From Candidatus Dadabacteria bacterium (lineage in GTDB: Bacteria > Desulfobacterota_D > UBA1144 > Nemesobacterales > CSP1-2): a DNA stretch of 15,743 nucleotides. The DNA lies in the NCBI GenBank assembly GCA_040289575.1, contig PSLL01000016.1, positions 33,337 through 49,079 of the forward strand, in the 5' to 3' direction. The notes under the pieces were generated by a model that saw only the letters and a list, made by a program, of their open reading frames with translations, had not been told where the DNA came from and did not search any database. This document shows, piece by piece, positions 571-15,743 of the stretch (positions within the stretch are counted from its first letter, which is position 1; each line of letters opens with the position of its first letter). The translations under genes and the position numbers were made by a program.

Positions 571-2469
571 TTAATCACTCCTCAAGATTTGTTCGACCGT
601 AGTGTAGACCTGAGACACCGTAAAGGGTTTGGGCATGAAAGAGAATGCACCTTCAGCCATTACCTTATCCGATACATCTTCCTCCGCTCTTCCGCTTAGA
701 ACTACAACAATTGAGCTGGGGTCTATAGTCTTTATCTCTCTAAGCACATCAAAACCGCTCTTCCCCGGCATTGTCAGGTCAAGAAATATGATGTCAAAGT
801 GATTTCCTTTTATAAGCTCTATAGCTTCATTGCCGGTGCTTGCAGTAAAGACGCTGTGGACAATGCTTGAGAGACACTCTTTAAGTATTGCACATATAAA
901 CTCTTCGTCGTCTACTATCAGGATTTTTGCGTTCCTTTTAGTTTGCAGAACACTTCTGTTGACTTCCTTATCCGACGCACTGCCCTTGACGGAATTTGAG
1001 GGAGGTTGAACGTTTGGAAGGCGTACTGTAAAGGTCGTTCCCTGTCCAACCTCACTTCCCACCTCTATCTGCCCATCATGCCTTTTAATTATTGCATAAA
1101 TCACAGAGAGTCCAAGCCCGGTGCCAGATGCCGAACCGCCTTCTTTAGTCGTAAAAAATGGATCAAAGATCCGCGACAGGTCCTCTTTCGCAATTCCGAT
1201 CCCCGTATCTGAGAAGTCTATCTTTACGTATTCACCTTCCAATTCAGTGGTTATTGTAATCACACCACCCTGCGGCATCGCCTGCTTTGAATTTATAGCC
1301 ATATTGAGTATAACCTGCTGAATTTCGCCCACATTCATCCTAAATGGAGGGACATCCCCATATTGGCGTACGATTTTTATCCCCCTAAGTTCAAAACTAT
1401 GCTCTATGAGAGTGAGCGCATCCTCTATTGTTTCATTTATTGAGGCGCACTCAAACTTCTCCCCCCTTTGTCTTGAGAAAGAGAGTAACTTCTTTACAAT
1501 CTCTATTGCCCTAGCAGAGGCCTTCTCTACTATCCTCAAGTCTCCTTTGATCTGTTCAAGGCTCTCTCTTGTCATAGCAAAACTCGTGTAGCCCATAATT
1601 CCAGAGAGAATATTGTTAAATTCATGGGCAATCCCCGCGGCAAGCTGGCCTACGGCAGACATTTTGGCAGACTGAACCAGTTGTACCTCTAGCTTTTTTT
1701 TCTCCGTAATATCATCAGTAACACCTATCACACCAAATATCTCACCGGTTTCAAAATCGAGGAGAGGAGAAAGGGTGATTTCTAGGAATCTATCTCCATA
1801 CTTAACCTCGCGCTTTGCAACATAAGAAGGGACGGTCAATAAATCAGGAAGAATTGAGCTAAAATCTACGACATCTATTAATTCAGTAATCTTCTGCCCA
1901 ATACAATCCTCACCAAATATGCTTATGGTTTTCGGATTCGCACTTTTTATAACCAAATCTCTATCCAGTGTCACAATGCTTTCGTGAGTGCTAGCGAGTA
2001 TATTCTCAAGCTCCCTGTTTCTCTCCCTTACCTTGAGCTCAAGACTCTTGTTTAGCTCTCGAAGCTCTTTGAGGAGACGCCTGTTTTCCTGCATAAGCTC
2101 ATATCCTTCGGTAGCACGCTTTATTATGCTCTTTAGCTTATTATAGTCGAGGGGTTTTGTGAGATAATCAAACGCCCCGAGTTGCATCGCCTTCATAGCG
2201 GTCCCCAGTGAAGCAAACCCGGTCATCATAATAACTGGCAGATCGGGATTAAGTGCCCTTATTCCTTCGAGAAGGTCTATTCCATTTTTTTCAGGCATTC
2301 GGATGTCAGTGAGGACAACATGGAAAAGGTTCTCTTTTAGAAGATCAAGTGCCCTGTTACAGTTAAAAGCGGTAGTTACCTGATAGCCTTCTTTTGTAAG
2401 GATGTCCGATATGATCTTTAGGATCAAACGCTCATCATCAACTACTAAGGCTCTTTTGTTCTCCATCAT
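571..2469 (-). CDS. Cytoplasmic hybrid sensor histidine kinase/response regulator (REC - coiled coil - PAS - HisKA - HATPase - REC)
   Basis: N-terminal REC (VVDDE, LTDIRMP, TGF, TKP); PAS-like segment; H-box AHEFNN; N-box QQVILNMAIN; DTGIG, FDPFFTTK and GTGLGL boxes; C-terminal REC (IVDDE, FLDLTMP, PKP). Overlaps the upstream kinase gene by 32 bp; the true start may be the second ATG at 2466. Confidence 0.93.
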   Translation of the reverse strand: MMENKRALVVDDERLILKIISDILTKEGYQVTTAFNCNRALDLLKENLFHVVLTDIRMPEKNGIDLLEGIRALNPDLPVIMMTGFASLGTAMKAMQLGAFDYLTKPLDYNKLKSIIKRATEGYELMQENRRLLKELRELNKSLELKVRERNRELENILASTHESIVTLDRDLVIKSANPKTISIFGEDCIGQKITELIDVVDFSSILPDLLTVPSYVAKREVKYGDRFLEITLSPLLDFETGEIFGVIGVTDDITEKKKLEVQLVQSAKMSAVGQLAAGIAHEFNNILSGIMGYTSFAMTRESLEQIKGDLRIVEKASARAIEIVKKLLSFSRQRGEKFECASINETIEDALTLIEHSFELRGIKIVRQYGDVPPFRMNVGEIQQVILNMAINSKQAMPQGGVITITTELEGEYVKIDFSDTGIGIAKEDLSRIFDPFFTTKEGGSASGTGLGLSVIYAIIKRHDGQIEVGSEVGQGTTFTVRLPNVQPPSNSVKGSASDKEVNRSVLQTKRNAKILIVDDEEFICAILKECLSSIVHSVFTASTGNEAIELIKGNHFDIIFLDLTMPGKSGFDVLREIKTIDPSSIVVVLSGRAEEDVSDKVMAEGAFSFMPKPFTVSQVYTTVEQILRSD

Positions 2470-4972
2470 CCTCTACTCCTATATTACCACTGTAACTAAT
2501 AGGAAGCTCTACCATAAAGGTAGTGCCTTTACCCTTTTCACTGCTGACTAAAATCCTCCCTCTATGCTCTTCAACTATCTTATAACTTATAGAGAGTCCG
2601 AGTCCAGTACCTGTATCCTTCTTTGTAAAGAAGGGATTAAAAATCTTTGGAATATCCTCCTCATCTATTCCGATACCTGTATCCGTAAATTTTATCAATA
2701 CACAGTCTGAGTTTCCAGAGGCGAGGCCCGTATCAATTCGGAGTTCTCCACCAGGGGACATTGCCTGAATGGCGTTTATTATAATATTGATGAACACCTG
2801 CCAGAGTTGATTTAGATCGCCTACAATACTCGGAATGCTAACATCAAAGTTCGTTATGAGCTTAATGTGATTATCTGAGAGTTGCTTCCTTACAAGAATC
2901 AAGGCGTTCTCAAGCACGCTGTTTATGTCTAATAACTCAAAATGCGGTGGTTCAGCCCTTGAAAACCTAAGCAGGTTGTCAATTAAGCGGTTGGTTCGTT
3001 CAACCTCGTGTTTGATATAATTTAAATACTCCCCCGCGGTAGAGCCTTCTCCGTTTATCACCTGAGATAAATAGTACCTTGCACCCTCTATTATATTTAG
3101 AGGATTGCGAATCTCATGCGCGATTCCAGCCGCAAGTTGTCCTATCGCCGACATCTTTTCCGCTTGTATAAGCTGCGATTGAGTCTCTCTAAGCTCTTTA
3201 TTTGCCCTTTCCAATCTTTTGGCATAATCCTCAACCATTCTATAAGCAATGGCGTTCTCAATGGCAATTGCACTCTGATTCGCAAGGGTTTTAAGCAGCC
3301 TTATATCCTCTGATGTATAGAGAAGTCCGGATTTCTTCTCACCCAAAGATAAAACACCTATTAGCCGCCCTTTAAAGAATAGAGGTATAAATAAAGCGGC
3401 GTTAAAGTCGCTGAAGGCTCCCATAAGTTTGTCCCTATATTCTATATACTTTTCATCGACAATCAAATCTTCCTTAAGAACCTCCTTCTTATACCTTTTG
3501 AGCAAGGCAACTAAACAACTATTTTCTTTAATCACATGGCTATTTATGGCACTTGCGGTTCCACTTGTAGCATAAACCTCATAGTTCCCGGAATTCTCAT
3601 TCCAGAGGATAATAGACACCGAATTTAAAAACATAGTTCTCTCAATAGAGGTAATAATCTTAGTGGCGATCTCATCAAGGTCAAGAAGAGATGTCATAGC
3701 GGAGCTTATCTCCTCAATAGTCCTGCGGTAGTCATATCTTTTTCTAAAGAACGTTAAATCTATAAAATTCTGGATTTGATTTTTAAGTGGATTTAAAGCA
3801 ATGACCACGAAAATAGTTAGTATTATGAAGAATACCGGATTCCTCCAGCCTCCATAGCTGGCAAAAACTACATTAAAAGCAATTACCATTAATATAAAAA
3901 TCCCACCTAGTACTCCCGTCAATATACTATAAAGCAGGGTCTTTTTAACAATGGCATCTATATCAAAGAGACTATGCTTTACAATGGCATAGGCCACTGA
4001 AATAATGAAAATAATAACCGGAAGAGCCAGAAGATTGTAAGGAATATCTATCTTAAAAACAGTAACGCCAATTGCTCCTAGAGCAGGCAAGAACAAGCCA
4101 AAAGAAGAGCCTAGTAATATCACTTGAGCCTTCTGTCTCTCTAAAGCAGAAGTCCCTTTCAAATAAGTTATCAATGATGAGGCTGGCAGTGACAGAGAGC
4201 CTAATATTATATACAACCAAATTGAGGTATTAATATTCTTCCAGATGACGTAAGAATCAAAATAGACTGTGTTTAAGGTAAACAAAAATGATGAAAGTGC
4301 AAACAAAAAAGCAATATAGTAATCTCTCCATTTTAAGAGGCTCTCAGAGGGAAAAATAAAAGCCAAATATATAGCAAAAGCTGGGGAAAAGAGCCCACCC
4401 AAAAAGGCTAGGTTCCCAAGCAGATATGTAGTCTGAGCACTGAATGAAGTTACAAACCAAATTCCAATCGAGGAGCAAAAAAAGAAGAAGATTCTGCTAG
4501 AGTGTAATTGGGGCTTTAAATAGTATACGAAAGTTCCTACAATCAGGAGAATAAAACCAATAAAATAGATAACTCCGAATATCCATATAAAGTCGCCCAC
4601 AGTAAATCTCATAGTGGGAATAGATAGATTAATAAACTCCCCATTTCTAAATACACGGTAATCAATTATAGTTCCTACGGGCAAACTATTAACAGCCCTA
4701 AAAATATCGCTAGGAGAAGATACCTTTTTTCTATTAATTTCAATTATCTTATCAGAGAATCTTTTTAAGCCTACTCTTTTATTCACCTTATAGGGGATAT
4801 CCGTAACTACTAAATTCCTGTAGAATAAAAAACCGGGGAATGGCTTATCTATCCATTGCAGTGCTGAAACAAAGCTAATTACACACACCGCAAGTGATAA
4901 TGAGACTGTCGCAATAGTCAGAAGCTTATATATCTTATTATCAAAAATATCTAACAATCGATTCTCTGTCAT
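2438..4972 (-). CDS. Membrane sensor histidine kinase (TM - periplasmic PDZ-like domain - multi-TM region - GAF - HisKA - HATPase)
   Basis: PDZ-like DKIIEINRKKV...VGTIIDYRVFRNG; roughly nine further hydrophobic segments including YAIVKHSLFDI; GAF-type IPLFFKGRLIGVLSLG...LLKTLANQSAIAIENA; H-box AHEIRNPL; DTGIG, FNPFFT and GTGLGL boxes. Confidence 0.93.
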   Translation of the reverse strand: MTENRLLDIFDNKIYKLLTIATVSLSLAVCVISFVSALQWIDKPFPGFLFYRNLVVTDIPYKVNKRVGLKRFSDKIIEINRKKVSSPSDIFRAVNSLPVGTIIDYRVFRNGEFINLSIPTMRFTVGDFIWIFGVIYFIGFILLIVGTFVYYLKPQLHSSRIFFFFCSSIGIWFVTSFSAQTTYLLGNLAFLGGLFSPAFAIYLAFIFPSESLLKWRDYYIAFLFALSSFLFTLNTVYFDSYVIWKNINTSIWLYIILGSLSLPASSLITYLKGTSALERQKAQVILLGSSFGLFLPALGAIGVTVFKIDIPYNLLALPVIIFIISVAYAIVKHSLFDIDAIVKKTLLYSILTGVLGGIFILMVIAFNVVFASYGGWRNPVFFIILTIFVVIALNPLKNQIQNFIDLTFFRKRYDYRRTIEEISSAMTSLLDLDEIATKIITSIERTMFLNSVSIILWNENSGNYEVYATSGTASAINSHVIKENSCLVALLKRYKKEVLKEDLIVDEKYIEYRDKLMGAFSDFNAALFIPLFFKGRLIGVLSLGEKKSGLLYTSEDIRLLKTLANQSAIAIENAIAYRMVEDYAKRLERANKELRETQSQLIQAEKMSAIGQLAAGIAHEIRNPLNIIEGARYYLSQVINGEGSTAGEYLNYIKHEVERTNRLIDNLLRFSRAEPPHFELLDINSVLENALILVRKQLSDNHIKLITNFDVSIPSIVGDLNQLWQVFINIIINAIQAMSPGGELRIDTGLASGNSDCVLIKFTDTGIGIDEEDIPKIFNPFFTKKDTGTGLGLSISYKIVEEHRGRILVSSEKGKGTTFMVELPISYSGNIGVEDDGEQKSLSS

Positions 4973-4989
4973 CTTTGTTCAAATTTAGG

Positions 4990-6132
4990 CTATTTTAAAT
5001 TGTTCGCATCGAAATTCCTTCCGTATACCGTCCAGTGTAGATCAATTTTCCCACCCATACATTCGGCAACACGTCTGGAATCCTTATTATCCTCTAGTAT
5101 CCACGTAGCCGTAGCCTCCCTATAGCCCTTTTCAATCATAGCTTTATACACACAAGCGACTAAAGTTGGACCTATCCCTCTACTCCTGTATTTATCCATT
5201 ACGCCTGCCATGATAATGGTTCCACCTTTTATACGGCGCAACTTAATAGGAAACTTAAGCACCCTTATTAGATTCACCCTTCCATTGAATTCTCTAAAGA
5301 TCGGGGCGTACTGTGGAAATCCACCAACAAAACCCACTGGCTTTCCATCTACCTCTGCGATTAACCAAAAATCAGGAATTACAAGGCTTTTAAATTCATT
5401 GACTATCTCCATAAATTCATCGTAATTAAAAGGAACATTACCCCACAGATGTATAAAAGCCTCATTAAAGATTCTAAGAATAGAGCGAACCTCATCATCC
5501 CATTTGGATTTATTTATCCGTCTTATTTGAACTCCTCGAACGAGCGTTTTCCCAGAAAAGGAATAGATCTGTTCAATATTTTCCGGCAGAGTAAGATCAA
5601 TAGAATAATGCAGAAGTTGCTTTATCGGATTAAAGCCAGCCCTCAAAAAATAGCCATGATAGTATGGCGGGGTATAGACCTGCAGAAAAGAAGGGGTCTT
5701 TTCAAAACCGGCTGATAAGAGCCCTCCCCCAAAAAGTCCGAAGATTCCATTTATAGGAGCCCAAACCTCTTTACATCCCTCTTGTTCCAAAAACTCAAGC
5801 GCCTTATCGAAGAGGAGTTTAATTGATTCCTCTTTATCAGAAAGTGCTTCGAAGAAACCAAGGAAACCCACACTCTTATTGTGATACTGATTAAAATAGT
5901 CATCCACAAGCGCACTTACAGTACCAACTATCTCCTTATTTTCCTCTACCACGAACCTTTTATTTCTCACTTTTCTAAAATAGAGGTAATCGCCAGAGAT
6001 GAGCTTTACCTGGTCTTTAATAAGAAAGTATGGAACCCATTGAGGGAAGTTCTTATAAACCTTCCATGAGAGCCTTATAGACTCTTCTATTTCCCTCTTG
6101 GAAGAAATCTCTTTAACACATCCTTCCGCCAT
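4990..6132 (-). CDS. Tandem GNAT-fold N-acyltransferase, YghO / bacterial ceramide synthase (bCerS)-like
   Basis: 380 aa with the family pattern W.VY...PQWVP, GFLGFFE, YTPPYY, IFNEAF..LWG.VP, acyl-CoA-binding YRSRGIG and WILEDN. Confidence 0.8.
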   Translation of the reverse strand: MAEGCVKEISSKREIEESIRLSWKVYKNFPQWVPYFLIKDQVKLISGDYLYFRKVRNKRFVVEENKEIVGTVSALVDDYFNQYHNKSVGFLGFFEALSDKEESIKLLFDKALEFLEQEGCKEVWAPINGIFGLFGGGLLSAGFEKTPSFLQVYTPPYYHGYFLRAGFNPIKQLLHYSIDLTLPENIEQIYSFSGKTLVRGVQIRRINKSKWDDEVRSILRIFNEAFIHLWGNVPFNYDEFMEIVNEFKSLVIPDFWLIAEVDGKPVGFVGGFPQYAPIFREFNGRVNLIRVLKFPIKLRRIKGGTIIMAGVMDKYRSRGIGPTLVACVYKAMIEKGYREATATWILEDNKDSRRVAECMGGKIDLHWTVYGRNFDANNLK

Positions 6133-6171
6133 TCAGGATAAATTACTCTTTCAGCAGGACTAAACACAGGA

Positions 6172-6200
6172 ATTTTATTATAAGATGAATAATATTGCAA
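6172..6200 (-). promoter_or_regulatory. Putative sigma70 promoter for the GNAT-kinase-hybrid kinase unit
   Basis: Minus strand TTGCAA (6200-6195), 17-nt spacer, TAAAAT (6177-6172), about 40 nt upstream of the GNAT ATG. The AT-rich context lowers specificity. Confidence 0.55.
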
Positions 6201-6440
6201 CCTTCTCTTTAAGATATACCAACTCAATGAGATTTTTGTATGCTAGTTGTCTACTGAAAGTTAAGTTCAAGTAAAAGAAAAATTCTTAAATATCGGTAGG
6301 TTATATATTTATTTTAATGTAAGTTAGTATAAAAGGTATGCAACTTAATTAAATTATTATACTTTCTATTTTGATCTGAGATTTTTTACACGGCAAATAA
6401 ACAATCAAAACAATAACTATTAGAAACAGAGTTTATTAAA

Positions 6441-6464
6441 ATGGGTCGGACATCCTTGCCCGAT
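6441..6464 (-). terminator. GC-rich hairpin downstream of the beta-barrel gene; weak intrinsic terminator or REP-like element
   Basis: Minus strand TCGGGCA-AGGA-TGTCCGA stem (one G-U pair) followed by CCCATTTTAAT; the U-tract is short and offset. Confidence 0.3.
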
Positions 6465-6507
6465 CTCTATGGACTTATGGTATTCCCTGGCTATATATAC
6501 CTTATTA

Positions 6508-8172
6508 TCACTTTTTAAAGAACTGATCAATAAATACAAGTAGCCTTCCCTGAAAAGAAAAAGGTACTCTCGGAGCACTAAAGTCACTTGGGGTTGTTAA
6601 CGGAGGTTCACCCCTGGATATCGCCGCATTATTTACCTCAAGTGAAGCCCTCTGCTCTTGTAGGTCTCTGAGACCACTTCCTGAGATTACAACACTACCT
6701 ATGAAATCAAAATTTACATTGGGCAAAACCTTAATTGTGAGAGTCCCCTCAATCTCAGCCCCTAAGAATTTACCCACTTTATTACTTGCACCGGTGATGG
6801 GGTCAGGAGTAAGTAGAGCCTGGCGCTCATCATTCCATGCAAAGAGAACTTGTGGGGTAAACAAAACCCTATCCGCAAGCCTAGCGGTTGTCCAACCCCT
6901 TACATAAGAGGCATTGATAACACTGCCCTCTAGTCCGTATATAGTCGGAATAATGTGTTTAAAAAGCAGATTGTCAATGTTATATGCAGGACTAAACGTG
7001 ATCGCGTTTCCTTCTATATTTGGATTAGAAGGCCCATTGATTTTATCTCCTTTTGCAAAGCCAAATTCAACAGCGGCAATATTTATCGGAAATCCCGGAT
7101 ATACCTCAGCCCTACCTGCAAAAACTAGGTTAGACGGCTTAACTTTAATCTCATCCGTTGGAAACGTAAAAGTGGGTGTGCTAAAGGCTTCCCTGGCATG
7201 TGTTACCTTTCCGAAAATATCGTCAATCTCGAAGGCAAATCTAAATAAATCGGTTTTATATTCAGTGAACAGAGCCGAAGTAAAGCTTCTTGTATCTGCC
7301 GCCGTTCCAGCAAAGTGCTTTTGCACAGCATATGGGAATATATAGCCCGCGACCTTAAAATGCCCTCGCGCCCATTCAAGAAGGGAACCAACCTCCCAAC
7401 CATCTCCTTGTCCTGCAATTAGGGTTGTTCCTTGCACTAGCCTATCTAGGGCAATTCCAAAAGAGAAATTTCCACCTGCAAGAGGAAAAACAGCAAGATA
7501 CCCTAGCCTATCCACTATAAAACCCAAGTCCGAATAGGGATCGGTACCACTATTATATAAAATTCCCAATCCGAAATCATAAGACTGCCTTCCAACCCTT
7601 ATATAACCTATATTTGGAATAAGGAGATCAACATGAAACATACGAGCATTGAAATACTGATTCCTATCATCCCCAACAAAACCGTTAGAACCTATACCAC
7701 CAGCGGGGTCAAAAGGCGGACGACCCCTAAATGGAGACAAGGTGTTTCCAAAGATCCCGGTTGAAAGAACAGTTACTGAAACAGGACCGGCAAGAATCGC
7801 GCCTCTAAACCTATCCCCAGGGGTTAAGGACTCAAATACAACATCACGCTCTAATGCAGAGTTTGCCCCACCCCAAATAACATTATCCATCACATCTACC
7901 TGAGCCCTAATTAAAACATTCTCACTTAGCCTTAGCTCAGGCGTTAAGCGAAGTCTTGAATCCACGAAAAATATCCTGTCATTCGCACTGTTAAGACCGA
8001 GTTGCTTTGCGGTATTCTTATCAAGTGCTCCAATAAAGGTTGAATCTTGGTAAAACTGTGGACGAATACGGAAATAGCTGGGGTATCCCCCCAAAGTCAA
8101 TTCAACTGCCCAAGAATAATCAGGTATAAGAATCCCTAAAAAGAATAGAAAAAGCCACCCGGCTTTTTTCAT
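6508..8172 (-). CDS. Predicted outer-membrane beta-barrel protein (porin/alginate-export-like) with Sec signal peptide
   Basis: Signal peptide MKKAGWLFLFFLGILIPDYSWA; amphipathic beta-strand patterns (DSRLRLTPELRLSENVLIRAQVDVMDN, YIRVGRQ..DFGLGI, FLGAEIEGTLT); strong SD AAGGAGG. Confidence 0.7.
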   Translation of the reverse strand: MKKAGWLFLFFLGILIPDYSWAVELTLGGYPSYFRIRPQFYQDSTFIGALDKNTAKQLGLNSANDRIFFVDSRLRLTPELRLSENVLIRAQVDVMDNVIWGGANSALERDVVFESLTPGDRFRGAILAGPVSVTVLSTGIFGNTLSPFRGRPPFDPAGGIGSNGFVGDDRNQYFNARMFHVDLLIPNIGYIRVGRQSYDFGLGILYNSGTDPYSDLGFIVDRLGYLAVFPLAGGNFSFGIALDRLVQGTTLIAGQGDGWEVGSLLEWARGHFKVAGYIFPYAVQKHFAGTAADTRSFTSALFTEYKTDLFRFAFEIDDIFGKVTHAREAFSTPTFTFPTDEIKVKPSNLVFAGRAEVYPGFPINIAAVEFGFAKGDKINGPSNPNIEGNAITFSPAYNIDNLLFKHIIPTIYGLEGSVINASYVRGWTTARLADRVLFTPQVLFAWNDERQALLTPDPITGASNKVGKFLGAEIEGTLTIKVLPNVNFDFIGSVVISGSGLRDLQEQRASLEVNNAAISRGEPPLTTPSDFSAPRVPFSFQGRLLVFIDQFFKK

Positions 8173-8272
8173 CTCTCCTTCCTCCTTATTTATGATTCTA
8201 ATTCTACCTGGCTTTATATTATATCCTTTCCCCCTCTTTAAACACCCAAGGCAAATTTAAGTTTGGAATCTA

Positions 8273-9628
8273 TCATGCCACTAAGGCCTGTGGATAAGGT
8301 TTTAGAACACCAAATTCCCTTCCTACCTTCTCCATGACCTCGAGGGTTCTATCCAAATCCTCCTGTGTATGGGTTGCCATAATGGTTAATCTGAATCGGC
8401 TCTCCCCTTTCGGCACAGCCGGATATGGAATGGCATTTAAGTAAATGCCCTCTTCGTGTATCCTCTTACTCATTTTTCTAAGGGTCAAATCATCGCCAAT
8501 AATAACCGGAATTACGGCCGACTCGGAGTTCCTAGTATCGAAACCCATGTATCTCAGGTTCTCCTTCATATATCTTATATTCTTCCATAGATTTTGATGT
8601 AGCTTTGGTTCATTTTCCATAACTTCAATAGCAGCCAGAACCGAAGCCGCAACCACAGGCGGCAGATTTGAGGAAAAGAAGAATGACCTTGTGTAATATC
8701 TCAGGTAATTGACAACCTCACGAGAAGAGGCAATGAATCCACCTATCCCACCCAGGGCTTTACTTAACGTACCCGCCACTATGTCTATTTTGCCCTCCAT
8801 TTTAAAATGGCTGGGTGTTCCCCTGCCATTCTCTCCAATAACTCCGGTCGCATGGGCTTCGTCTATCATGACCTTCGCATCGTATTCATGGGCAACCTCT
8901 AAAATCTCAGGGAGAGGCGCAATGTCGCCATCCATACTGTATACGCCGTCAACCACTATGAGTTTCCCATTATACTGATTCTTAGCCCTTTCCAATACCC
9001 CATTTAGGCTCATGACATCGGAATGCTTAAATGTTCTAAGAACGCCTCCACTGAGCATACAGCCATCTATGATGCTTGCGTGGGCAAGCCTATCAATTAT
9101 TGCAACGTCCCCCCTTTTTACCAAAGCCTGGATGCAGCCGAGATTGGTTACATAGCCACTACTAAACACAATGGCATCCTCGCATCCCTTTAATTTGGCT
9201 AACTTAAGCTCAAGCTCCCTGTGTATATCATATGTACCGGCAAGGAGGGGCACCGAACCGGCACCAACACCATACTTCTCTATTGCCACTCTAGCCGCCT
9301 CGATCACCTTTGGGTGGGAAGTGAGACCGAGATAATTATTACTTCCCATCATAATCATCTCTTTCACCCTTCCTGTTGTTCCATCCCTAACTAACACCCG
9401 ATTTTTACAAGCCGAAGCCAAAGGCCTTCTATATGTACCAAAACCCTTCCGGTTTATATCCTCCATAAACTTCCAAAAGACCTTAGCCTTTGCGAATAAA
9501 TCCTTATCCGGAAATTCCACAAAATCAGCCAGACTATAATTATCAGAGTTTATCCCTACTCTAGAGCATTCTTCCGAGTATTCCTCAACCGGGGAAAAAT
9601 CTGGTACATTTTCTACTAAGCTTTCCAT
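8273..9628 (-). CDS. PLP-dependent alpha-oxoamine synthase (serine palmitoyltransferase / BioF / Kbl / CqsA family); SPT-like by context
   Basis: GSNNYLGL, HASIIDG, DGVYSMDGD, DEAH, PLP-lysine motif GTLSKA and YPAVP....RFR; N-terminal extension; SD AAGGAG. Substrate specificity cannot be read from these motifs. Confidence 0.9.
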   Translation of the reverse strand: MESLVENVPDFSPVEEYSEECSRVGINSDNYSLADFVEFPDKDLFAKAKVFWKFMEDINRKGFGTYRRPLASACKNRVLVRDGTTGRVKEMIMMGSNNYLGLTSHPKVIEAARVAIEKYGVGAGSVPLLAGTYDIHRELELKLAKLKGCEDAIVFSSGYVTNLGCIQALVKRGDVAIIDRLAHASIIDGCMLSGGVLRTFKHSDVMSLNGVLERAKNQYNGKLIVVDGVYSMDGDIAPLPEILEVAHEYDAKVMIDEAHATGVIGENGRGTPSHFKMEGKIDIVAGTLSKALGGIGGFIASSREVVNYLRYYTRSFFFSSNLPPVVAASVLAAIEVMENEPKLHQNLWKNIRYMKENLRYMGFDTRNSESAVIPVIIGDDLTLRKMSKRIHEEGIYLNAIPYPAVPKGESRFRLTIMATHTQEDLDRTLEVMEKVGREFGVLKPYPQALVA

Positions 9629-9726
9629 GGCTTTCTCCTTCTGCCCTAGACGTGGATTTAAGGGTCTTAGGAGGAAAGAAAATCCTCTAGTAGGGACAGA
9701 ATTGAGAGATAAGAATAGATGGTAAA

Positions 9727-9876
9727 AACCCTACTTCGGCAACCCGGCCACCATATTCACCGTTGATCTCTGGCTCTATCAAATATAAAAGGCACATTGT
9801 ATCCTCAACAATGAACTTAGGTCCGAGGCTTTGCGTCCCATCCTTTCGAACGGTTCGCCCTTATCGCCCAGGGCTA
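9727..9876 (-). promoter_or_regulatory. Cyclic di-GMP-I (GEMM-I) riboswitch aptamer in the 5' UTR of the alpha-oxoamine synthase gene
   Basis: Minus strand CGAUAAGGGCGAACCGUUC-GAAA-GGAUGGGACGCAAAGCCUCGGACCUAAG...UAUGGUGGCCGGGUUGCCGAAG: GAAA tetraloop stem, canonical 11-nt receptor CCUAAG/UAUGG, GGGACGCAAAGC junction, closing P1 AGCCCUG/UAGGGUU. Positions equivalent to Vc2 G20/A47/C92 are G9859/A9832/C9739. Confidence 0.93.
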
Positions 9877-9890
9877 TTGACTTACTTACG

Positions 9891-9919
9891 ATTCTATATC
9901 ATACTTTTTGCCCCTGCAA
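9891..9919 (-). promoter_or_regulatory. Putative sigma70 promoter driving the riboswitch-containing transcript
   Basis: Minus strand TTGCAG (9919-9914), 17-nt spacer, TAGAAT (9896-9891). The predicted start near 9884 lies just upstream of the aptamer. Confidence 0.7.
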
Positions 9920-10038: not shown

Positions 10039-11109
10039 CTAAATCCTTACTACCCTTGTCATAAGTAGATGATCTACCAAAACTAGATTTACCATCGCTT
10101 CGGCAATTGGAACCGCTCTTGGACAAAGGCAAGGGTCATGTCTGCCCTTCACCACAAGCTCTTTGAGTCTGCCGAATCTGTCTACCGTCTCTTGAGTTTT
10201 TGGAATTGAAGAAGTGGGTTTTATCGCAATCCTGATAACCAAGTCCTCGCCGTTTGTAATTCCGCCTAGGATTCCACCTGCATTATTTGTCTTAAATCTG
10301 AGCCTCCCAGAATCATCCACGTACATTACATCATTGACCTCGGAGCCCCTCCGCCTTGAAACACCAAACCCCATTCCTATCTCAACTCCCCTTATACCGC
10401 CTATACTCATTAGAGCCTGAGCAAGGTCTGCGTCAATCTTATTGAAAACAGGATCGCCGAGACCCGGGGGAACACCGGCTGAGACAACCTCAACTATCCC
10501 CCCGATTGAATCCCCATCACGCCTTACCTCTTCAATCAGATTTATCATCTCCTGGGCTTTCTGAGGGTCAGGGCATCTCACAGGGTTATTTTCAATTTCA
10601 TTGAAATCTATACGCTCAGCCACAATGTCGCCGATTTGGCGCACATAACCTATAGTTCTTATACCATTCATACTCAGGATCTTCTTTCCTATAGCAGCCG
10701 CGGCAACCCGTCCAGCCGTTTCCCTTGCCGAAGACCTCCCGCCGCCCCTGTAGTCCCTTATTCCATATTTAATATCGTATGTATAATCGGCATGGCCGGG
10801 GCGATATGTGTCCTTTATGTCTTCGTATGATTTAGAAATCACATCCAAGTTCTTGATTAAGAGTGAAATCGGGGTCCCCAGTGTCTTTCCTTCAAATACG
10901 CCTGAGAGTATTTCCACCTTGTCTGGCTCTTTTCTCTGTGTGGTCAGCCTGCTCTGGCCGGGGCGGCGTCTATCGAGTTCATACTGAATGTCCTCCTCAG
11001 AAACCTCAAGCCCCGCAGGACAACCGTCTATTACAACTCCGATTGCGGGGCCATGGGACTCTCCCCATGTAGTTATACGAAAGAGACGACCAAAGGAATT
11101 TCCAGGCAT
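10039..11109 (-). CDS. aroC: Chorismate synthase
   Basis: [41 protein letters not shown] and GRHDPC signatures. Confidence 0.98.
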
Positions 11110-11393: not shown

Positions 11394-12644
11394 TCAGTGT
11401 CCTCCAGAGTGATGTGAACCGATTTTACCACTAAAGAGCGGATCTCCTATAGGCAGAACTGGAAAGGTTCTTATAAAAAGCAAAAATGTCAATATGAATG
11501 CAGAAAGGAAACCGATTGTTATAAGGATCTGCACCCAGCCGAAATGAATTTGGGAAAAGAGAGAAGGCGTAACTAGAACGAACTTCTCTAACCAGAGACC
11601 GCAGAAATAGACAGTAGCTATGAATGCAAGTATAGGAGTGATAATCTTATTCGTCTTTGGAAGGAGTGTAACAAGAGGGAAAAAGAAACAGCAGGAGATT
11701 ACAAGCCAAGCAAGGGTCTTAAACGGTGGCTCCTGCACACGCTTAATCACAAACCCTACCTCTTCGGGCAGACTCGCATACCAAATAACTAAAAACTGAG
11801 AAAAGAACATGTAGACCCAAAAGAGTGAGAACCCGAAAAGGAGCCTTCCTAGGTCGTGGAATTGGGATTTCGTTATGTAGTCCTGGAGGTTGAGATACTT
11901 CCGAACCATTACAGAAAGGATAATCGTCGCACAAAGCCCACTTATAAAACAGGCAACAAAGTAATAAATCCCGAATAGTGTGCTATACCAGTGAGGATTA
12001 AGCGACATCATGAAGTCAAAAGCAAAAAGGCTAAAAACAGCCGCATAGATGAGGACAATTGCGGGTGCAAGCCTGAGTATCCTATTCCAGCACCTTACCT
12101 TTTCTTCTTCCCCACGCCAGCCTGAAGCTATCCAGCCTCTTATCCCCGAACTCTCGCCACTACCCCCCAGGTCCTGCCTAAGAGAATAATAGAGATAAGT
12201 AAGGCTAAGAATGGAGAGAATAAATAGTCCAATCACATCTCTGCCAAAGACAAAATAGATATTGAGCCACAGGTCCTTAGGATGAGGATAAGGATGCGTG
12301 GCATAAGGGAGGATATGGTCTTTCCCAATAAAGAGGATAAGAAGTAGAACAAAGGATATAGGTATAAATGAACCAAGGGCCTCGGCGATTCTTAAAACAG
12401 GCCTCCCCCATTTTCCTGATGTTATACGAAAGGCGCAAGATACGATGATTCCACCCTGAGCAACACCAGCCCAGAAGAGAAAATTCACGAGATAAATCTG
12501 CCAGGCTTCCTTGGCATTAGAACTCATAGTCTGAGATACGAACGTAGCAGCTCCTAAAACAAGGAGCGCCAGAAGGATAAGGATGAGCAGATTTGGGATC
12601 CGTATAGGTCTTGAGAGGATTTCTTCTCTTACTTTTTCATCCAT
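11394..12644 (-). CDS. actF: Alternative complex III membrane subunit ActF
   Basis: Polytopic NrfD-like protein with W...VLRIAEA, FDFMMSLNPHWYSTLFG, HDLGRLLFGFSLFWVYMFFSQFLVIWY..LPEE; follows actE. Confidence 0.9.
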   Translation of the reverse strand: MDEKVREEILSRPIRIPNLLILILLALLVLGAATFVSQTMSSNAKEAWQIYLVNFLFWAGVAQGGIIVSCAFRITSGKWGRPVLRIAEALGSFIPISFVLLLILFIGKDHILPYATHPYPHPKDLWLNIYFVFGRDVIGLFILSILSLTYLYYSLRQDLGGSGESSGIRGWIASGWRGEEEKVRCWNRILRLAPAIVLIYAAVFSLFAFDFMMSLNPHWYSTLFGIYYFVACFISGLCATIILSVMVRKYLNLQDYITKSQFHDLGRLLFGFSLFWVYMFFSQFLVIWYASLPEEVGFVIKRVQEPPFKTLAWLVISCCFFFPLVTLLPKTNKIITPILAFIATVYFCGLWLEKFVLVTPSLFSQIHFGWVQILITIGFLSAFILTFLLFIRTFPVLPIGDPLFSGKIGSHHSGGH

Positions 12645-12646
12645 TT

Positions 12647-13186
12647 TTATTTATCCTTAATAATATTGATTTTCCCCTGAAGCTTTCTTACATAATTCAC
12701 AATGTTCCAAGCCTCATCCGACGACACATTTTCGCTGTAGCTCGGCATCATCACTTTTCCTCCGTACCTGATATAAGCGTATATATATCCATCCGTTCTG
12801 GCTTGAGTCTGAGAAGCAGTAAGATTAACAGGATAGAATCCCTTCTTTATAACCGGTCCGTCCCCCTTCCCTCCTATTCCATGACAGGGAGAACAGTTAT
12901 TTTCAAACAGTTTTTCGCCCTTTTGCAAAGAAGCTTCGGTCGGCGGAATTGGGTTTTCGGTTATTGATTCAAAGTTTCCTCTCGTCATTTCGGTTTGCTT
13001 TATACTCTGGTTCTCAGAAACCGACTTCTTCGGATACGGAATGGGTTCTTCATATGGCCAGATTGAAGGCTGTTTCCACATATCATGAGACCAGGGCCAG
13101 CCAAAGACATTGCCTGTTCCAAATATAGTTAAGATCAAGATGATGAAAGGTAGAAAATAGATTTTTAACCCTTTGACCAAATTCAA
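12647..13186 (-). CDS. actE: Alternative complex III monoheme cytochrome c subunit ActE
   Basis: Single CSPCH heme motif, DM..QP N-terminal motif, NPIP, DGYIY..IRYG..MMPSY (distal Met), WNIVNYVRKLQ; TTG start with strong SD GAGGAGG. Confidence 0.88.
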   Translation of the reverse strand: MNLVKGLKIYFLPFIILILTIFGTGNVFGWPWSHDMWKQPSIWPYEEPIPYPKKSVSENQSIKQTEMTRGNFESITENPIPPTEASLQKGEKLFENNCSPCHGIGGKGDGPVIKKGFYPVNLTASQTQARTDGYIYAYIRYGGKVMMPSYSENVSSDEAWNIVNYVRKLQGKINIIKDK

Positions 13187-13242
13187 CTTACCTCCTCGAA
13201 ATCAAGATAGGGGATAAAATACATCTCCCATCGTGCATCATA

Positions 13243-13755
13243 TTAAACTCCCTCAAAACGCACCTCTTCGGCTCCAGAGAACCTTAGTATCTCCTCTACC
13301 TTTTTTATATCCTCTTTTGAACACACGGTTGCTACTCCAAACTTATCTACAGAAAATCTTGGATCATACATGGCTCTGGGAGCATTACGCCTTAAGCGTG
13401 AGTTAATGAGAAGACCAAAGACGGTTGAAAGAGATCCCAAAAGAACCGTAAGCTCAAAGACAATGACCATATAGGGGGGAAGGGACACTATGGGTTTTGC
13501 GCTTGTCCTTATAGGCCAGTCCAAAGAGGTGAGGACTGTAAATGTAAGACCACAGAGCGCCCCCAGAGTCCCTCCGGTCAGGGTAAAAAAGCGCACTATA
13601 CTCTCAGAGCCCTTTAGTGCATCCTCAATCTCGTGATTGGGAAATGGAGAGAACACCCGTAAATTCCCGTAGCCCTCTTCTCTTAGCCTCTTTATTGCAT
13701 CAACGGTCGAATCAACATATGAAAAAACCCCGACTATAGTCTGATCTATCTTCAT
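13243..13755 (-). CDS. actD: Alternative complex III subunit ActD (DUF3341)
   Basis: FSPFP.H, two TM helices, DWPI....KP, VIVFELTVL, YDPRFS.DKF, GAEEV; ATGA overlap with the actC stop. Confidence 0.9.
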   Translation of the reverse strand: MKIDQTIVGVFSYVDSTVDAIKRLREEGYGNLRVFSPFPNHEIEDALKGSESIVRFFTLTGGTLGALCGLTFTVLTSLDWPIRTSAKPIVSLPPYMVIVFELTVLLGSLSTVFGLLINSRLRRNAPRAMYDPRFSVDKFGVATVCSKEDIKKVEEILRFSGAEEVRFEGV

Positions 13756-15116
13756 CGCACCTTTGCCTCCTTATTAGGGGCAGGCAAAATCTCCTTTATC
13801 TCGGCAATTGAAAGCGCAGGAAGTGTCTTGATAAAAAGGAGAAAGAACATAAAGAACCAAGCAAAGGCTCCTGCCGTAATCCCAAGCTCAACCCAAGATA
13901 CCCTATAGATACCCCAGGCGCCTGGCTCAAATTCATGGGAGAGGGAAATCACTATAATGTTAAACCTCTCAAACCACATTCCAATGTTTATAAAAAGGGA
14001 TATTATAAATAGCGCTTTTATATTCGTCCGAATCTTTTTAAACCAGAGAAGTATGGGAATGACAGAATTACAGAAAACCATAATCCAGAAAAATGGAGCG
14101 TAAGGGCCCTTAGCTCTAAATACGGTCTGTCCCCACTCGGGAGGGCTTCCGCTGTACCAAGATATAAAGGGTTCTACTATATACGCATACGTAACGATAA
14201 GTCCGGTAAGAATGATGAGCTTTGCCATACCCTCGAAGTTCGCGACGGTTATATATTCCTCGAGGTGAAAGATCTTTCGAATCGGCACGGCAAGCGTAAT
14301 CACCAATGCAAGCCCAGAGAAGATAGCCCCGGCGACAAAATACGGAGCAAATATCGTTGTATGCCACCCTGGAACATCTGCCATAGCAAAGTCCCATGAC
14401 ACAACGCTATGGACTGAAAGAACAAGGGGAGTCGCAAATGCGGCAAGGTAGAAGTAAGCCCTCGTATAATGACTCCACTCCCAGCTTGAGCCCTTCCATC
14501 CGAGAGACAAGATGGTGTATATTATCTTTCGTGGAACCTCTTTTACTCTGTCCCTTATCGCTGCAATATCGGGAATCATACCTACATAAAAGAAGATACT
14601 ACTTACGGTTAAATAAGTACTTACGGCAAATACGTCCCAAATAAGAGGAGAACGGAAGTTTATCCAGAGTCCGCGCTGATTCGGATATGGGATAAGCCAG
14701 TAAAAATTCCATGGCCTTCCAAGGTGTATAAGGGGAAAGAGGCCCGCCGTGAGCACTGCAAATACAGTCATTGCCTCAGAAATCCGGTATATAGACATCC
14801 TAAATCTCGCCCTAAATAGAAAGAGAATGGCAGAGATGAGCGTCCCCGAGTGCGCAATTCCAACCCAGAAAACAAAGTTTGTGATGTATACCGCCCAAAA
14901 AACGGGATGCCTGTATCCGGTAACCCCCAGACCCATATAGATCTGATACATCCAGCAGAAGATTCCAAAGGCAAGGACGGCAAGGTCAAATACAAAAAGA
15001 GAGAGCCACTTGATTGTGGGCTTATCGAGCATCCGGATTACAGATTCATTTACCTTTGAGTATGTTACAGTTGGTTCGATTATGGTTGTTTCACGTATAG
15101 TTGTTTCGTGGTCCAT
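13752..15116 (-). CDS. actC: Alternative complex III quinol-binding membrane subunit ActC (NrfD/PsrC family)
   Basis: YITNFVFWVGIAHSGTLISAIL, HLGRPW, NFRSPLIWDVFAVSTY, VLSVHSVVSWDFA, GWHTTIFAPYFVAGAIFSG, GMWFERF; TAATG overlap with actB. Confidence 0.95.
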   Translation of the reverse strand: MDHETTIRETTIIEPTVTYSKVNESVIRMLDKPTIKWLSLFVFDLAVLAFGIFCWMYQIYMGLGVTGYRHPVFWAVYITNFVFWVGIAHSGTLISAILFLFRARFRMSIYRISEAMTVFAVLTAGLFPLIHLGRPWNFYWLIPYPNQRGLWINFRSPLIWDVFAVSTYLTVSSIFFYVGMIPDIAAIRDRVKEVPRKIIYTILSLGWKGSSWEWSHYTRAYFYLAAFATPLVLSVHSVVSWDFAMADVPGWHTTIFAPYFVAGAIFSGLALVITLAVPIRKIFHLEEYITVANFEGMAKLIILTGLIVTYAYIVEPFISWYSGSPPEWGQTVFRAKGPYAPFFWIMVFCNSVIPILLWFKKIRTNIKALFIISLFINIGMWFERFNIIVISLSHEFEPGAWGIYRVSWVELGITAGAFAWFFMFFLLFIKTLPALSIAEIKEILPAPNKEAKVR

Positions 15117-15742
15117 TATACTTTATCCCATTTTACCTTTTTTAGATATGTAATTGAGGGGTGCGTATTTAGATCTGAAAGAACGCCGTAACCCCTTTCA
15201 TCCTTTGAAAGACGGGAGACCTCGCTTTCTGGGTCTTTTAGGTCTCCAAAGACAATTGCCTTTGTAGGGCAGGTCTGAGCGCAGGCAGGTATTATCTCAC
15301 CGTCCCTCACATCTCGTCCTTCGTCCTTTGCCCTATCCTCTCCAAAACGAATTCTCTGCACACAGAACGTGCATTTCTCCATAACTCCTTTGCTTCTTAC
15401 AGTAACATCGGGATTCAATTGCCAGTTAAGAGGCACAGGCCATCTGTATGTAAACCAGTTAAACCGCCTGACCTTGTATACACAGTTATTTGAGCAGTAC
15501 CTTGTCCCGACGCATCGGTTATAAACCATTACGTTAAGACCCTCGGGATTATGGTACGTCGCATAAACCGGACAAACAGGCTCGCACGGAGCGTTATCGC
15601 AGTGCTGACAGAGCATCGGAATAAATCTCATATTGGAATCATTTTGATTCTCTTCCTCAAAGTACCTCTCAATTCTAATCCATGACATCTCACGCCTCTT
15701 ACCAATCTGCTCCTTACCAACCACAGAAATGTTATTTTCAGC
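15116..15742 (-). CDS. actB: Alternative complex III iron-sulfur subunit ActB, C-terminal part (gene starts outside the window)
   Basis: Frame is open to the window edge (AENNISVVGKEQ...REMSWIRIERY); CQHCDNAPCEPVCP, CVGTRYCSNNC, EKCTFC and PACAQTCP Fe-S motifs. Confidence 0.93.
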   Translation of the reverse strand, partial: AENNISVVGKEQIGKRREMSWIRIERYFEEENQNDSNMRFIPMLCQHCDNAPCEPVCPVYATYHNPEGLNVMVYNRCVGTRYCSNNCVYKVRRFNWFTYRWPVPLNWQLNPDVTVRSKGVMEKCTFCVQRIRFGEDRAKDEGRDVRDGEIIPACAQTCPTKAIVFGDLKDPESEVSRLSKDERGYGVLSDLNTHPSITYLKKVKWDKV

Positions 15743-15743
15743 A

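Follow-up and report, generated by a model that had tools for sequence, protein, structure and literature searches.

In a 15,743-nucleotide stretch of Candidatus Dadabacteria DNA (assembly GCA_040289575.1, contig PSLL01000016.1, positions 33,337 to 49,079; the whole stretch is referred to below as the window), a locus containing a cyclic di-GMP (c-di-GMP) riboswitch, an alpha-oxoamine synthase (AOS), an outer-membrane beta-barrel, a YghO-type GNAT N-acyltransferase and two histidine kinases, HK1 and HK2, is on balance probably a swappable synthase–receptor cassette of the agr kind, controlled by c-di-GMP and dedicated to an N-acyl amino-ketone signal. The locus likely produces a lipid signal that differs between strains, and senses it, instead of supplying a structural ceramide. 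Comparison with related genomes (designated G001 and so on) reveals a variable segment, made up of the genes for synthesis and the 5' part of the HK1 gene that encodes the sensor, between conserved flanks, which is the pattern of agr.

HK1 is a mosaic. Between the window and the same-genus genome G001, its sensor is 44% identical, in contrast with 86% for its cytoplasmic half, 88% for HK2 and 93% for AroC, encoded beside the locus; the break falls near residue 310–320, the end of the predicted seven-transmembrane (7TM) bundle. Co-phylogeny of synthase and sensor, proposed as a check in an earlier note on this DNA, was found in partial form by approximately unbiased (AU) tests on the 22 genomes with all four parts (G055, whose AOS is truncated, was left out). 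The sensor alignment favours the AOS tree over the HK2 tree (log-likelihood difference, dlnL, 333; p-AU 1.6e-6), and the cytoplasmic half favours the HK2 tree over the AOS tree (dlnL 708). The partial rank correlation of sensor with AOS given HK2 is 0.68 (rho), or 0.63 on 14 thinned genomes. The PDZ domain and the 7TM both lean to the AOS tree, the 7TM on its own co-varies with the enzymes (dlnL 148), and the PilZ domain that opens AOS in relatives weakly prefers the HK2 tree (p 0.037).

Within genera (13 pairs, not independent of one another), 7TM identity tracks that of GNAT (rho 0.80), and not that of AOS, the kinase half or HK2. G043 and G045, for example, share 96% identity in AOS, 77% in GNAT, 62% in the 7TM and 97% in the kinase half. 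Where the enzymes are alike, conservation of the 7TM matches that of the kinase half (95% for G009/G012, 87% for G045/G047). It falls where the tailoring gene, which lies between AOS and HK1, changes or diverges: to 48–49% for G014 against G009/G012, whose tailoring gene is a different one, to 62% for G043, and to 38% for G029/G037.

The linkage of these genes was followed in 61 genomes, the window's own and 60 relatives. An AOS orthologue, clearly distinct from the BioF-like paralog, is present in 26, and HK1 lies immediately downstream in all 26. GNAT is present in 17 of the 61; in 15 of these it shares one open reading frame (ORF) of about 820–950 aa with AOS, in one a contig end truncates it, and the window alone has it as a gene of its own. 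In the PilZ-AOS-GNAT fusions of relatives it is the C-terminal domain, and a protein search returned 37 near-full-length clusters of this type among 119 matches. The tailoring gene may be GNAT, a short-chain dehydrogenase/reductase (SDR), a Zn-dehydrogenase or an S-adenosylmethionine (SAM) methyltransferase, or there may be none. An HK1 sensor orthologue occurs in 38 of the 120 genomes of the phylum that were searched. The earlier note had proposed that synthase, GNAT and kinase belong together, which these counts bear out, and had named conserved synteny of five genes as a check; here the core of AOS, with or without a tailoring gene, HK1 and HK2 stands, and the barrel, absent from the 15 fusion loci, drops out. 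Fusions of AOS and GNAT without PilZ, of the same clade, are also found on other metagenome contigs (L157:1043-4760 and L152:3559-6984); one lies directly behind a FadL-family barrel and the other is followed by a weak methyltransferase match.

A natural replacement of the synthase is seen in G001 (L041:7729-9084). The riboswitch, the ribosome-binding site and the first ~35 codons are homologous to the leader of the window AOS, and the frame then continues as a SAM methyltransferase. The G001 locus has no AOS, barrel or GNAT, and HK1 and HK2 follow the methyltransferase. The same chimeric start is present in a database protein (P0122). Twenty of the at least 120 homologues listed for the methyltransferase are named, 11 of them '3-hydroxypalmitic acid methyl ester biosynthesis protein'. 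Synthesis of this ester is the function described for PhcB, which makes a quorum signal and is paired with a sensor kinase. In G011, the riboswitch precedes a methyltransferase and HK1, whose 7TM shares 76% identity with the one in G001. The PilZ-AOS of G011 (L029:8900-11675) and that of G017 (L036:1-1422) lack the pyridoxal phosphate (PLP) lysine in the alignment; the G011 AOS may be a dead remnant.

Two links to c-di-GMP were found. Ahead of the window AOS, cmscan detects an RF01051 aptamer over the whole model (positions 1–87; 71.5 bits against a gathering threshold of 35, E 1.2e-12), with a 51-nt insertion in its P3 loop. Read from the Rfam alignment, the aptamer has G at the equivalent of G20 and C at the equivalent of C92 (Vc2 numbering). 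In GEMM-I aptamers, A20 marks the cGAMP type. G20 and C92 are described as ligand contacts of the c-di-GMP-I riboswitch (PMC9049102), and to judge from these positions the window aptamer is of the c-di-GMP rather than the cGAMP type. Control is likely to be translational, because no intrinsic terminator was found in the expression platform. Enforcing P1 lowers the predicted unpaired probability of the Shine–Dalgarno sequence from 0.24 to 0.08 in the window, but in G001 it rises from 0.02 to 0.06. The riboswitch leader is conserved in G001. Fifteen genomes have RF01051 ahead of the synthase slot and three have it between AOS and HK1, making 18 of the 28 genomes with HK1.

The second link is the N-terminal PilZ domain with which AOS starts in relatives. 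It exceeds the Pfam cut-off in 12 of the 13 scanned, and both PilZ c-di-GMP motifs are present in 20 of 23, one of the three misses being a mis-extracted row. The domain appears to have been lost from the window AOS: an HMM of the clade found no remnant upstream of the gene and no close PilZ paralog in the genome. To the c-di-GMP control suggested in the earlier note, relatives add PilZ as a second link. The window's own genome has 10 RF01051 sites (L001–L010); the others precede pilB-, pilM- and polysaccharide export/modification-like genes, identified by inspection, which is to say a surface regulon. In some relatives, genes for REC-HD-GYP and CZB-GGDEF proteins immediately precede the locus (L028:13580-15814; L021:9288-11785). 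The window genome encodes a REC-HD-GYP orthologue elsewhere (58%; C28:49103-50185) and four GG[DE]EF proteins. REC-HD-GYP is a candidate feedback output on c-di-GMP.

The window AOS carries the PLP motifs (Lys290, His183) and matches the Thermus thermophilus enzyme (ThAOS, 7poa) over its full length (E 5e-96). It falls below the NCBIfam cut-offs for serine palmitoyltransferase (SPT; CFB 406 against 640 bits, beta 356 against 500, alpha 293 against 670), for BioF (TIGR00858, 402 against 426), for Kbl (358 against 493 and 420 against 460) and for the CqsA type (NF005526, 214.7 against 428). The only trait it shares with Kbl is a Val gatekeeper, and no tdh was found in the locus; the other AOS of the genome (C19) sits in a bioB-bioA-bioF-like run. 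On these scores the synthase would not be a BioF or Kbl, the case that the earlier note had named as fatal to its proposal. The gatekeeper, Val126, lies in the substrate loop (122–132) at the equivalent of V79 in ThAOS, where the residue is reported to govern the choice of amino acid, Val being found in KBL and Ser in SPT and AONS (PMC11906848). This would point to glycine or alanine rather than serine; yet ThAOS itself also takes serine. The loop differs widely among AOS orthologues otherwise 55–70% identical.

The best matches from cultured organisms are AOS domains of prodigiosin-type clusters (PigH-type), at 41–43% identity including an N-terminal extension; the genes beside them are annotated PigD and RedY. 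PigH and RedN are the AOS of prodigiosin clusters. In a quick tree of 37 sequences, whose deep branches are weak, the Dadabacteria AOS form their own clade apart from PigH, the Spt of Escherichia coli and Roseomonas fall in another clade, and the Parabacteroides sequence is unplaced.

The window GNAT is 25% identical to YghO of E. coli BL21 over 373 aa (E 2e-36), and by this alignment is a full-length, distant homologue of YghO and the bacterial ceramide synthase bCerS. The BL21 strain, in contrast to what K-12 offers as a host, carries an spt-yghO cluster of its own. Published bCerS assignments use full-length homology at E <= 1e-30 for a database size of 1e8 (PMC11334938). In tblastn with E. 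coli YghO as sole query, the window GNAT is borderline at 1.3e-28, and three relatives reach 1e-30 or lower (best 1.7e-31). Sequence searches of the PDB gave nothing useful for GNAT or for the barrel profile. With E. coli CerR as sole query, no CerR orthologue was found in the genome, which is 95% complete (best match 2e-14, 23–27% identity). The reading of the enzyme as an SPT making true ceramide is not supported, in view of the missed SPT cut-offs, the Val gatekeeper, the position of the AOS apart from Spt and the failure to find CerR. An AOS, YghO-like GNAT and NAD-epimerase operon on a plasmid of Rubrobacter radiotolerans (L142:8941-12308), a cultured actinobacterium, looks like a plasmid-borne ceramide pathway.

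An AlphaFold (AF2) model of HK1 residues ~10–420 (mean pLDDT 82) shows TM1, a periplasmic PDZ domain and a helical bundle. The PDZ resembles DegS/DegP (Foldseek, E about 1e-3). The bundle aligns with the 7TM folds of G-protein-coupled receptors (GPCR; Z 15.7, rmsd 3.2 A, 197 residues; VIA), a match in fold only, as helical bundles score generously. Among 30 members of the HK1 family, PDZ_2 is matched in 22 and HisKA_7TM in three. A second PDZ-7TM-GAF kinase in the same genome (26% identity; C31:72509-74889), by a dnaE-like gene, is apparently frameshifted here and whole in G001. The closest PDZ-7TM-GAF proteins outside the Dadabacteria (L104–L107), one of them an adenylate/guanylate cyclase, adjoin an Lnt-like N-acyltransferase in all four loci, and in all four a probably secreted, unannotated protein of 160–180 aa lies alongside. 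An acyl- or lipid-type enzyme is found near about 16 of 37 more distant 7TM-sensor loci (Lnt 4, LPG-synthase-C 4, FeeM 2, PhcB-like 2, others 4). That scan covered 117 of 135 selected ORFs, followed by 45 at a less strict cut-off; lacking a null control, it gives only a lead. Some 7TM sensors of other phyla (L108:6559-12001, L116:9269-17800, L124:8690-12247, L140:1107-5022) lie beside PhcB-like methyltransferases or come after N-acyl amino acid synthases of the FeeM type; two that were checked match HisKA_7TM.

The barrel is accessory to the locus, not part of its core. It is a predicted beta-barrel whose best solved structural match is AlgE (Foldseek, E 2e-13), with further matches to alginate-export clusters. 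A FadL/TodX lipid channel was considered and rejected: a Pfam scan gave no match, PF03349 (FadL) included, and the top structural matches are to AlgE. The family is present in 55 of the 61 genomes, and the regions fetched for the 15 fusion loci contain no barrel, so that conservation of all five genes was discarded; a role for the barrel as core lipid exporter, along the lines suggested in the earlier note, is not supported. In eight loci without GNAT, a linked barrel of a distinct clade (100/100) lies upstream of AOS. The window barrel is 38–44% identical to these and 60% identical to a free paralog, and is sister to the AOS-linked clade at only 86 SH-aLRT in a quick tree that includes one wrong-frame ORF row. 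It lies between AOS and GNAT, which relatives have joined in a single fusion. A FadL protein precedes one distant AOS-GNAT. The window barrel may help the product to cross the outer membrane.

If the locus is a signalling cassette, c-di-GMP would set its expression through the riboswitch and, in relatives, also its activity through PilZ. AOS would join a small amino acid to an acyl-thioester, forming an amino-ketone that the YghO-type GNAT would then N-acylate; the product would be detected by the half of HK1 that is predicted to hold the PDZ and the GPCR-like 7TM. HK1 would relay the signal to HK2, possibly on to REC-HD-GYP, closing a loop on c-di-GMP. The unit that is exchanged and diversifies would start at the AOS core, take in the tailoring gene and stop where the 7TM ends, with the PilZ on its upstream side, and the GAF-kinase half and HK2 on its downstream side, following the lineage. 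Exchange of this unit would give strain-specific signal types, as in staphylococcal agr.

Several observations weigh against this reading. HK1 occurs without a synthase in a second locus of G019 and in a fragment of G025, where aroC stands directly before it, and G017 has a PilZ-AOS for which no HK1 was found. AOS is beside none of the 37 more distant 7TM-sensor loci, and the short contigs that carry distant AOS-GNAT fusions of this clade have no 7TM kinase. At the gathering threshold, no riboswitch was detected in the locus of ten of the 28 genomes with HK1. The periplasmic domain of HK1 is a PDZ, a peptide-binding fold, and the PhcB-type label of the G001 gene is an automatic database name. 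Congruence of sensor and AOS is partial, because the sensor alignment fits its own tree much better than that of AOS (dlnL 362). Finally, because all of the co-varying parts lie on contiguous DNA, recombination tracts could carry the sensor along without any relation to a ligand.

The products could instead be structural. AOS and the bCerS-like GNAT may make an oxidized (deoxy)ceramide-like envelope lipid within a c-di-GMP biofilm or surface regulon, with kinases that regulate or monitor the envelope and no communication receptor. The full-length YghO homology of GNAT suits this explanation, as do the AOS-GNAT fusion, which matches the cytoplasmic Spt-then-bCerS order described in PMC11087976, the SDR or Zn-dehydrogenase genes after AOS in G012, G019 and G014, the FadL ahead of a distant AOS-GNAT, and the pilus- and polysaccharide-export-like genes, recognized by inspection of the sequence, behind the genome's other riboswitches. 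It is nevertheless unlikely, given the missed SPT cut-offs, the Val gatekeeper, the lack of grouping with Spt, the CerR search that found no orthologue, and an AOS orthologue not found in 35 of the 61 genomes. Nor would such a pathway be expected to have a substrate loop that varies, tailoring genes that can be swapped, an unrelated methyltransferase as a replacement, or a sensor that changes with the enzymes. A product secreted as a bioactive amino-ketone metabolite, like those of PigH/RedN, and encoded at a recombination hotspot would make the sensor half a hitchhiker and leave HK1 to sense something else. The prodigiosin-cluster matches, with their shared N-terminal extension, the contiguity of the cassette and the persistence of HK1 in two loci without a synthase all agree with this. 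The break at the 7TM boundary, which spares PilZ and the kinase half, the separate Dadabacteria clade in the quick tree and the lack of polyketide synthase or acyl carrier protein (ACP) genes in the loci speak against it, and it is judged quite improbable.

HK1 might also be an envelope-stress sensor, its DegS-like PDZ binding the C-termini of peptides, such as those of outer-membrane barrels, with control of the lipid enzymes exerted from upstream. The DegS/DegP resemblance, the barrel linked in nine loci, and the Lnt-like acyltransferase and small predicted secreted protein adjoining the closest PDZ-7TM proteins of other phyla in four of four loci are in keeping with this role. It is the 7TM, however, and not the PDZ alone, that co-varies with the enzymes, and a stress sensor would have no evident reason to track the GNAT sequence within a genus; this explanation is very improbable.

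The elements of the locus are listed in Table 1. The six named in the earlier note were all found on the reverse strand in the order it gave, as was its interval of 17 bp (4973-4989) between the GNAT stop and the HK1 start. The HK1 and HK2 reading frames overlap by 32 bp. Because the AT-rich spacer of 375 bp splits the barrel from GNAT, a single transcript for the whole block is not assured. The spacer has a weak promoter-like match (6200-6172), from a scan that gave 27 sites overall against 24.5 expected by chance. A second riboswitch was not found in it, an Rfam scan of the spacer giving no match below E 7. A terminator-like hairpin at 8168-8149 was dropped, as it falls within the coding start of the barrel. 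Misassembly does not account for the order of AOS, barrel and GNAT, since single contigs from two runs of two studies, either of which may be the window's source, span 5700-8700.

Table 1. Elements of the locus in the window
Element	Position	Strand	Basis
c-di-GMP-I (GEMM-I) riboswitch aptamer	9735..9869	-	cmscan, RF01051
Expression platform and ribosome-binding site	9629..9734	-	
PLP alpha-oxoamine synthase (AOS), 451 aa	8273..9628	-	PF00155
Outer-membrane beta-barrel, 554 aa; AlgE-like/TIGR04551-related porin with signal peptide	6508..8172	-	
AT-rich spacer, 375 bp; possible weak internal promoter	6133..6507	no strand	
YghO/bCerS-like tandem GNAT N-acyltransferase, 380 aa	4990..6132	-	
HK1, sensor kinase (whole)	2438..4972	-	
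HK1 variable sensor half, about residues 1-320: TM1, periplasmic PDZ, GPCR-like 7TM (HisKA_7TM-related)	4013..4972	-	
HK1 conserved half: two more TM helices, GAF, HisKA with intact H-box, HATPase	2438..4012	-	
HK2, cytoplasmic hybrid kinase, REC-PAS-HisKA-HATPase-REC	571..2469	-	

Upstream of the locus, aroC (10039-11109) is a conserved neighbour. Beyond it, a run of membrane, cytochrome c and iron-sulfur ORFs on the reverse strand (11394-15743) presumably resembles alternative complex III. After HK2, two small unannotated ORFs (~114 aa with CxxC motifs, and ~96 aa) are present in 16–17 of the 29 loci fetched (e.g. L011:3817-4474).

A wider proposal would be that Dadabacteria use quorum sensing with strain-specific dialects, in which a fused synthase, PilZ-gated and riboswitch-controlled, makes a ceramide-like N-acyl amino-ketone signal that is received by a kinase with a GPCR-fold 7TM. 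This is put forward tentatively, its probability falling somewhat short of even. If true, it would bring together an alpha-oxoamine synthase controlled by c-di-GMP, N-acylation of the ceramide type put to use in signalling, and a bacterial GPCR-fold kinase with a candidate lipid ligand. A literature search, with most subscription journals outside its scope, found no description of PilZ-AOS or of this locus, nor of these three links joined. Orphan HisKA_7TM-type sensors would gain a class of lipid ligands, and AOS, PhcB-type and other acyl enzymes would be interchangeable in the synthase slot. The natural allelic series of the window, G008, G003, G014 and G001 supplies a cognate and non-cognate set, which makes it possible to test both what an orphan receptor family binds and how an uncultured phylum behaves socially.

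Comparison with known systems places the locus among several. The prodigiosin enzymes PigH/RedN include the highest-scoring cultured relatives of the window AOS and have the N-terminal extension in common with it; the window AOS differs in its substrate loop, has no ACP domains or pig genes, and falls in a separate clade of the quick tree. The agr hypervariable region of staphylococci, described as the 3' part of agrB, agrD and the 5' part of agrC (PMC3673130), likewise unites synthesis genes with the sensor part of the kinase between conserved flanks. Its signal is a peptide and its proteins are unrelated, whereas the predicted signal of the window is a lipid and its specificity groups are proposed only. 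With the Spt-bCerS-CerR ceramide pathway (PMC11087976, PMC11334938) the locus shares an AOS and a YghO/bCerS-type GNAT, and likely the formation of an amino-ketone followed by N-acylation. It differs in an AOS that is no SPT by cut-off, gatekeeper or tree, in the lack of a detected CerR orthologue, in having no ACP or acyl-AMP ligase in the window locus, and in the PilZ fusion of relatives and the co-varying receptor.

By way of working, the locus would resemble the Phc, Cqs and Lqs quorum-sensing systems (PMC8023197, PMC7567580). In Ralstonia phcBSR, where PhcB is a methyltransferase and PhcS a kinase, a lipid-signal synthase also lies directly before a sensor kinase, and a methyltransferase named automatically for the PhcB function occupies the synthase slot of G001. 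The window enzyme, however, is an AOS, the receptor architecture differs, and the homology to PhcB is by database names only. Vibrio CqsA/CqsS and Legionella LqsA/LqsS, described as alpha-hydroxyketone quorum-sensing systems (PMC8023197), share the clustering of an AOS-family synthase with a membrane histidine kinase; the product predicted here is of the acyl amino-ketone class. The window AOS misses the CqsA-type family cut-off (214.7 against 428), and the Dadabacteria locus adds an N-acyltransferase, fused in relatives, PilZ and riboswitch control, and a receptor of PDZ, GPCR-like 7TM and GAF followed by a hybrid kinase. By the tests made, the locus is a member of none of these systems; it would appear to work like Cqs/Lqs or Phc quorum sensing, with the chemistry of the ceramide pathway.

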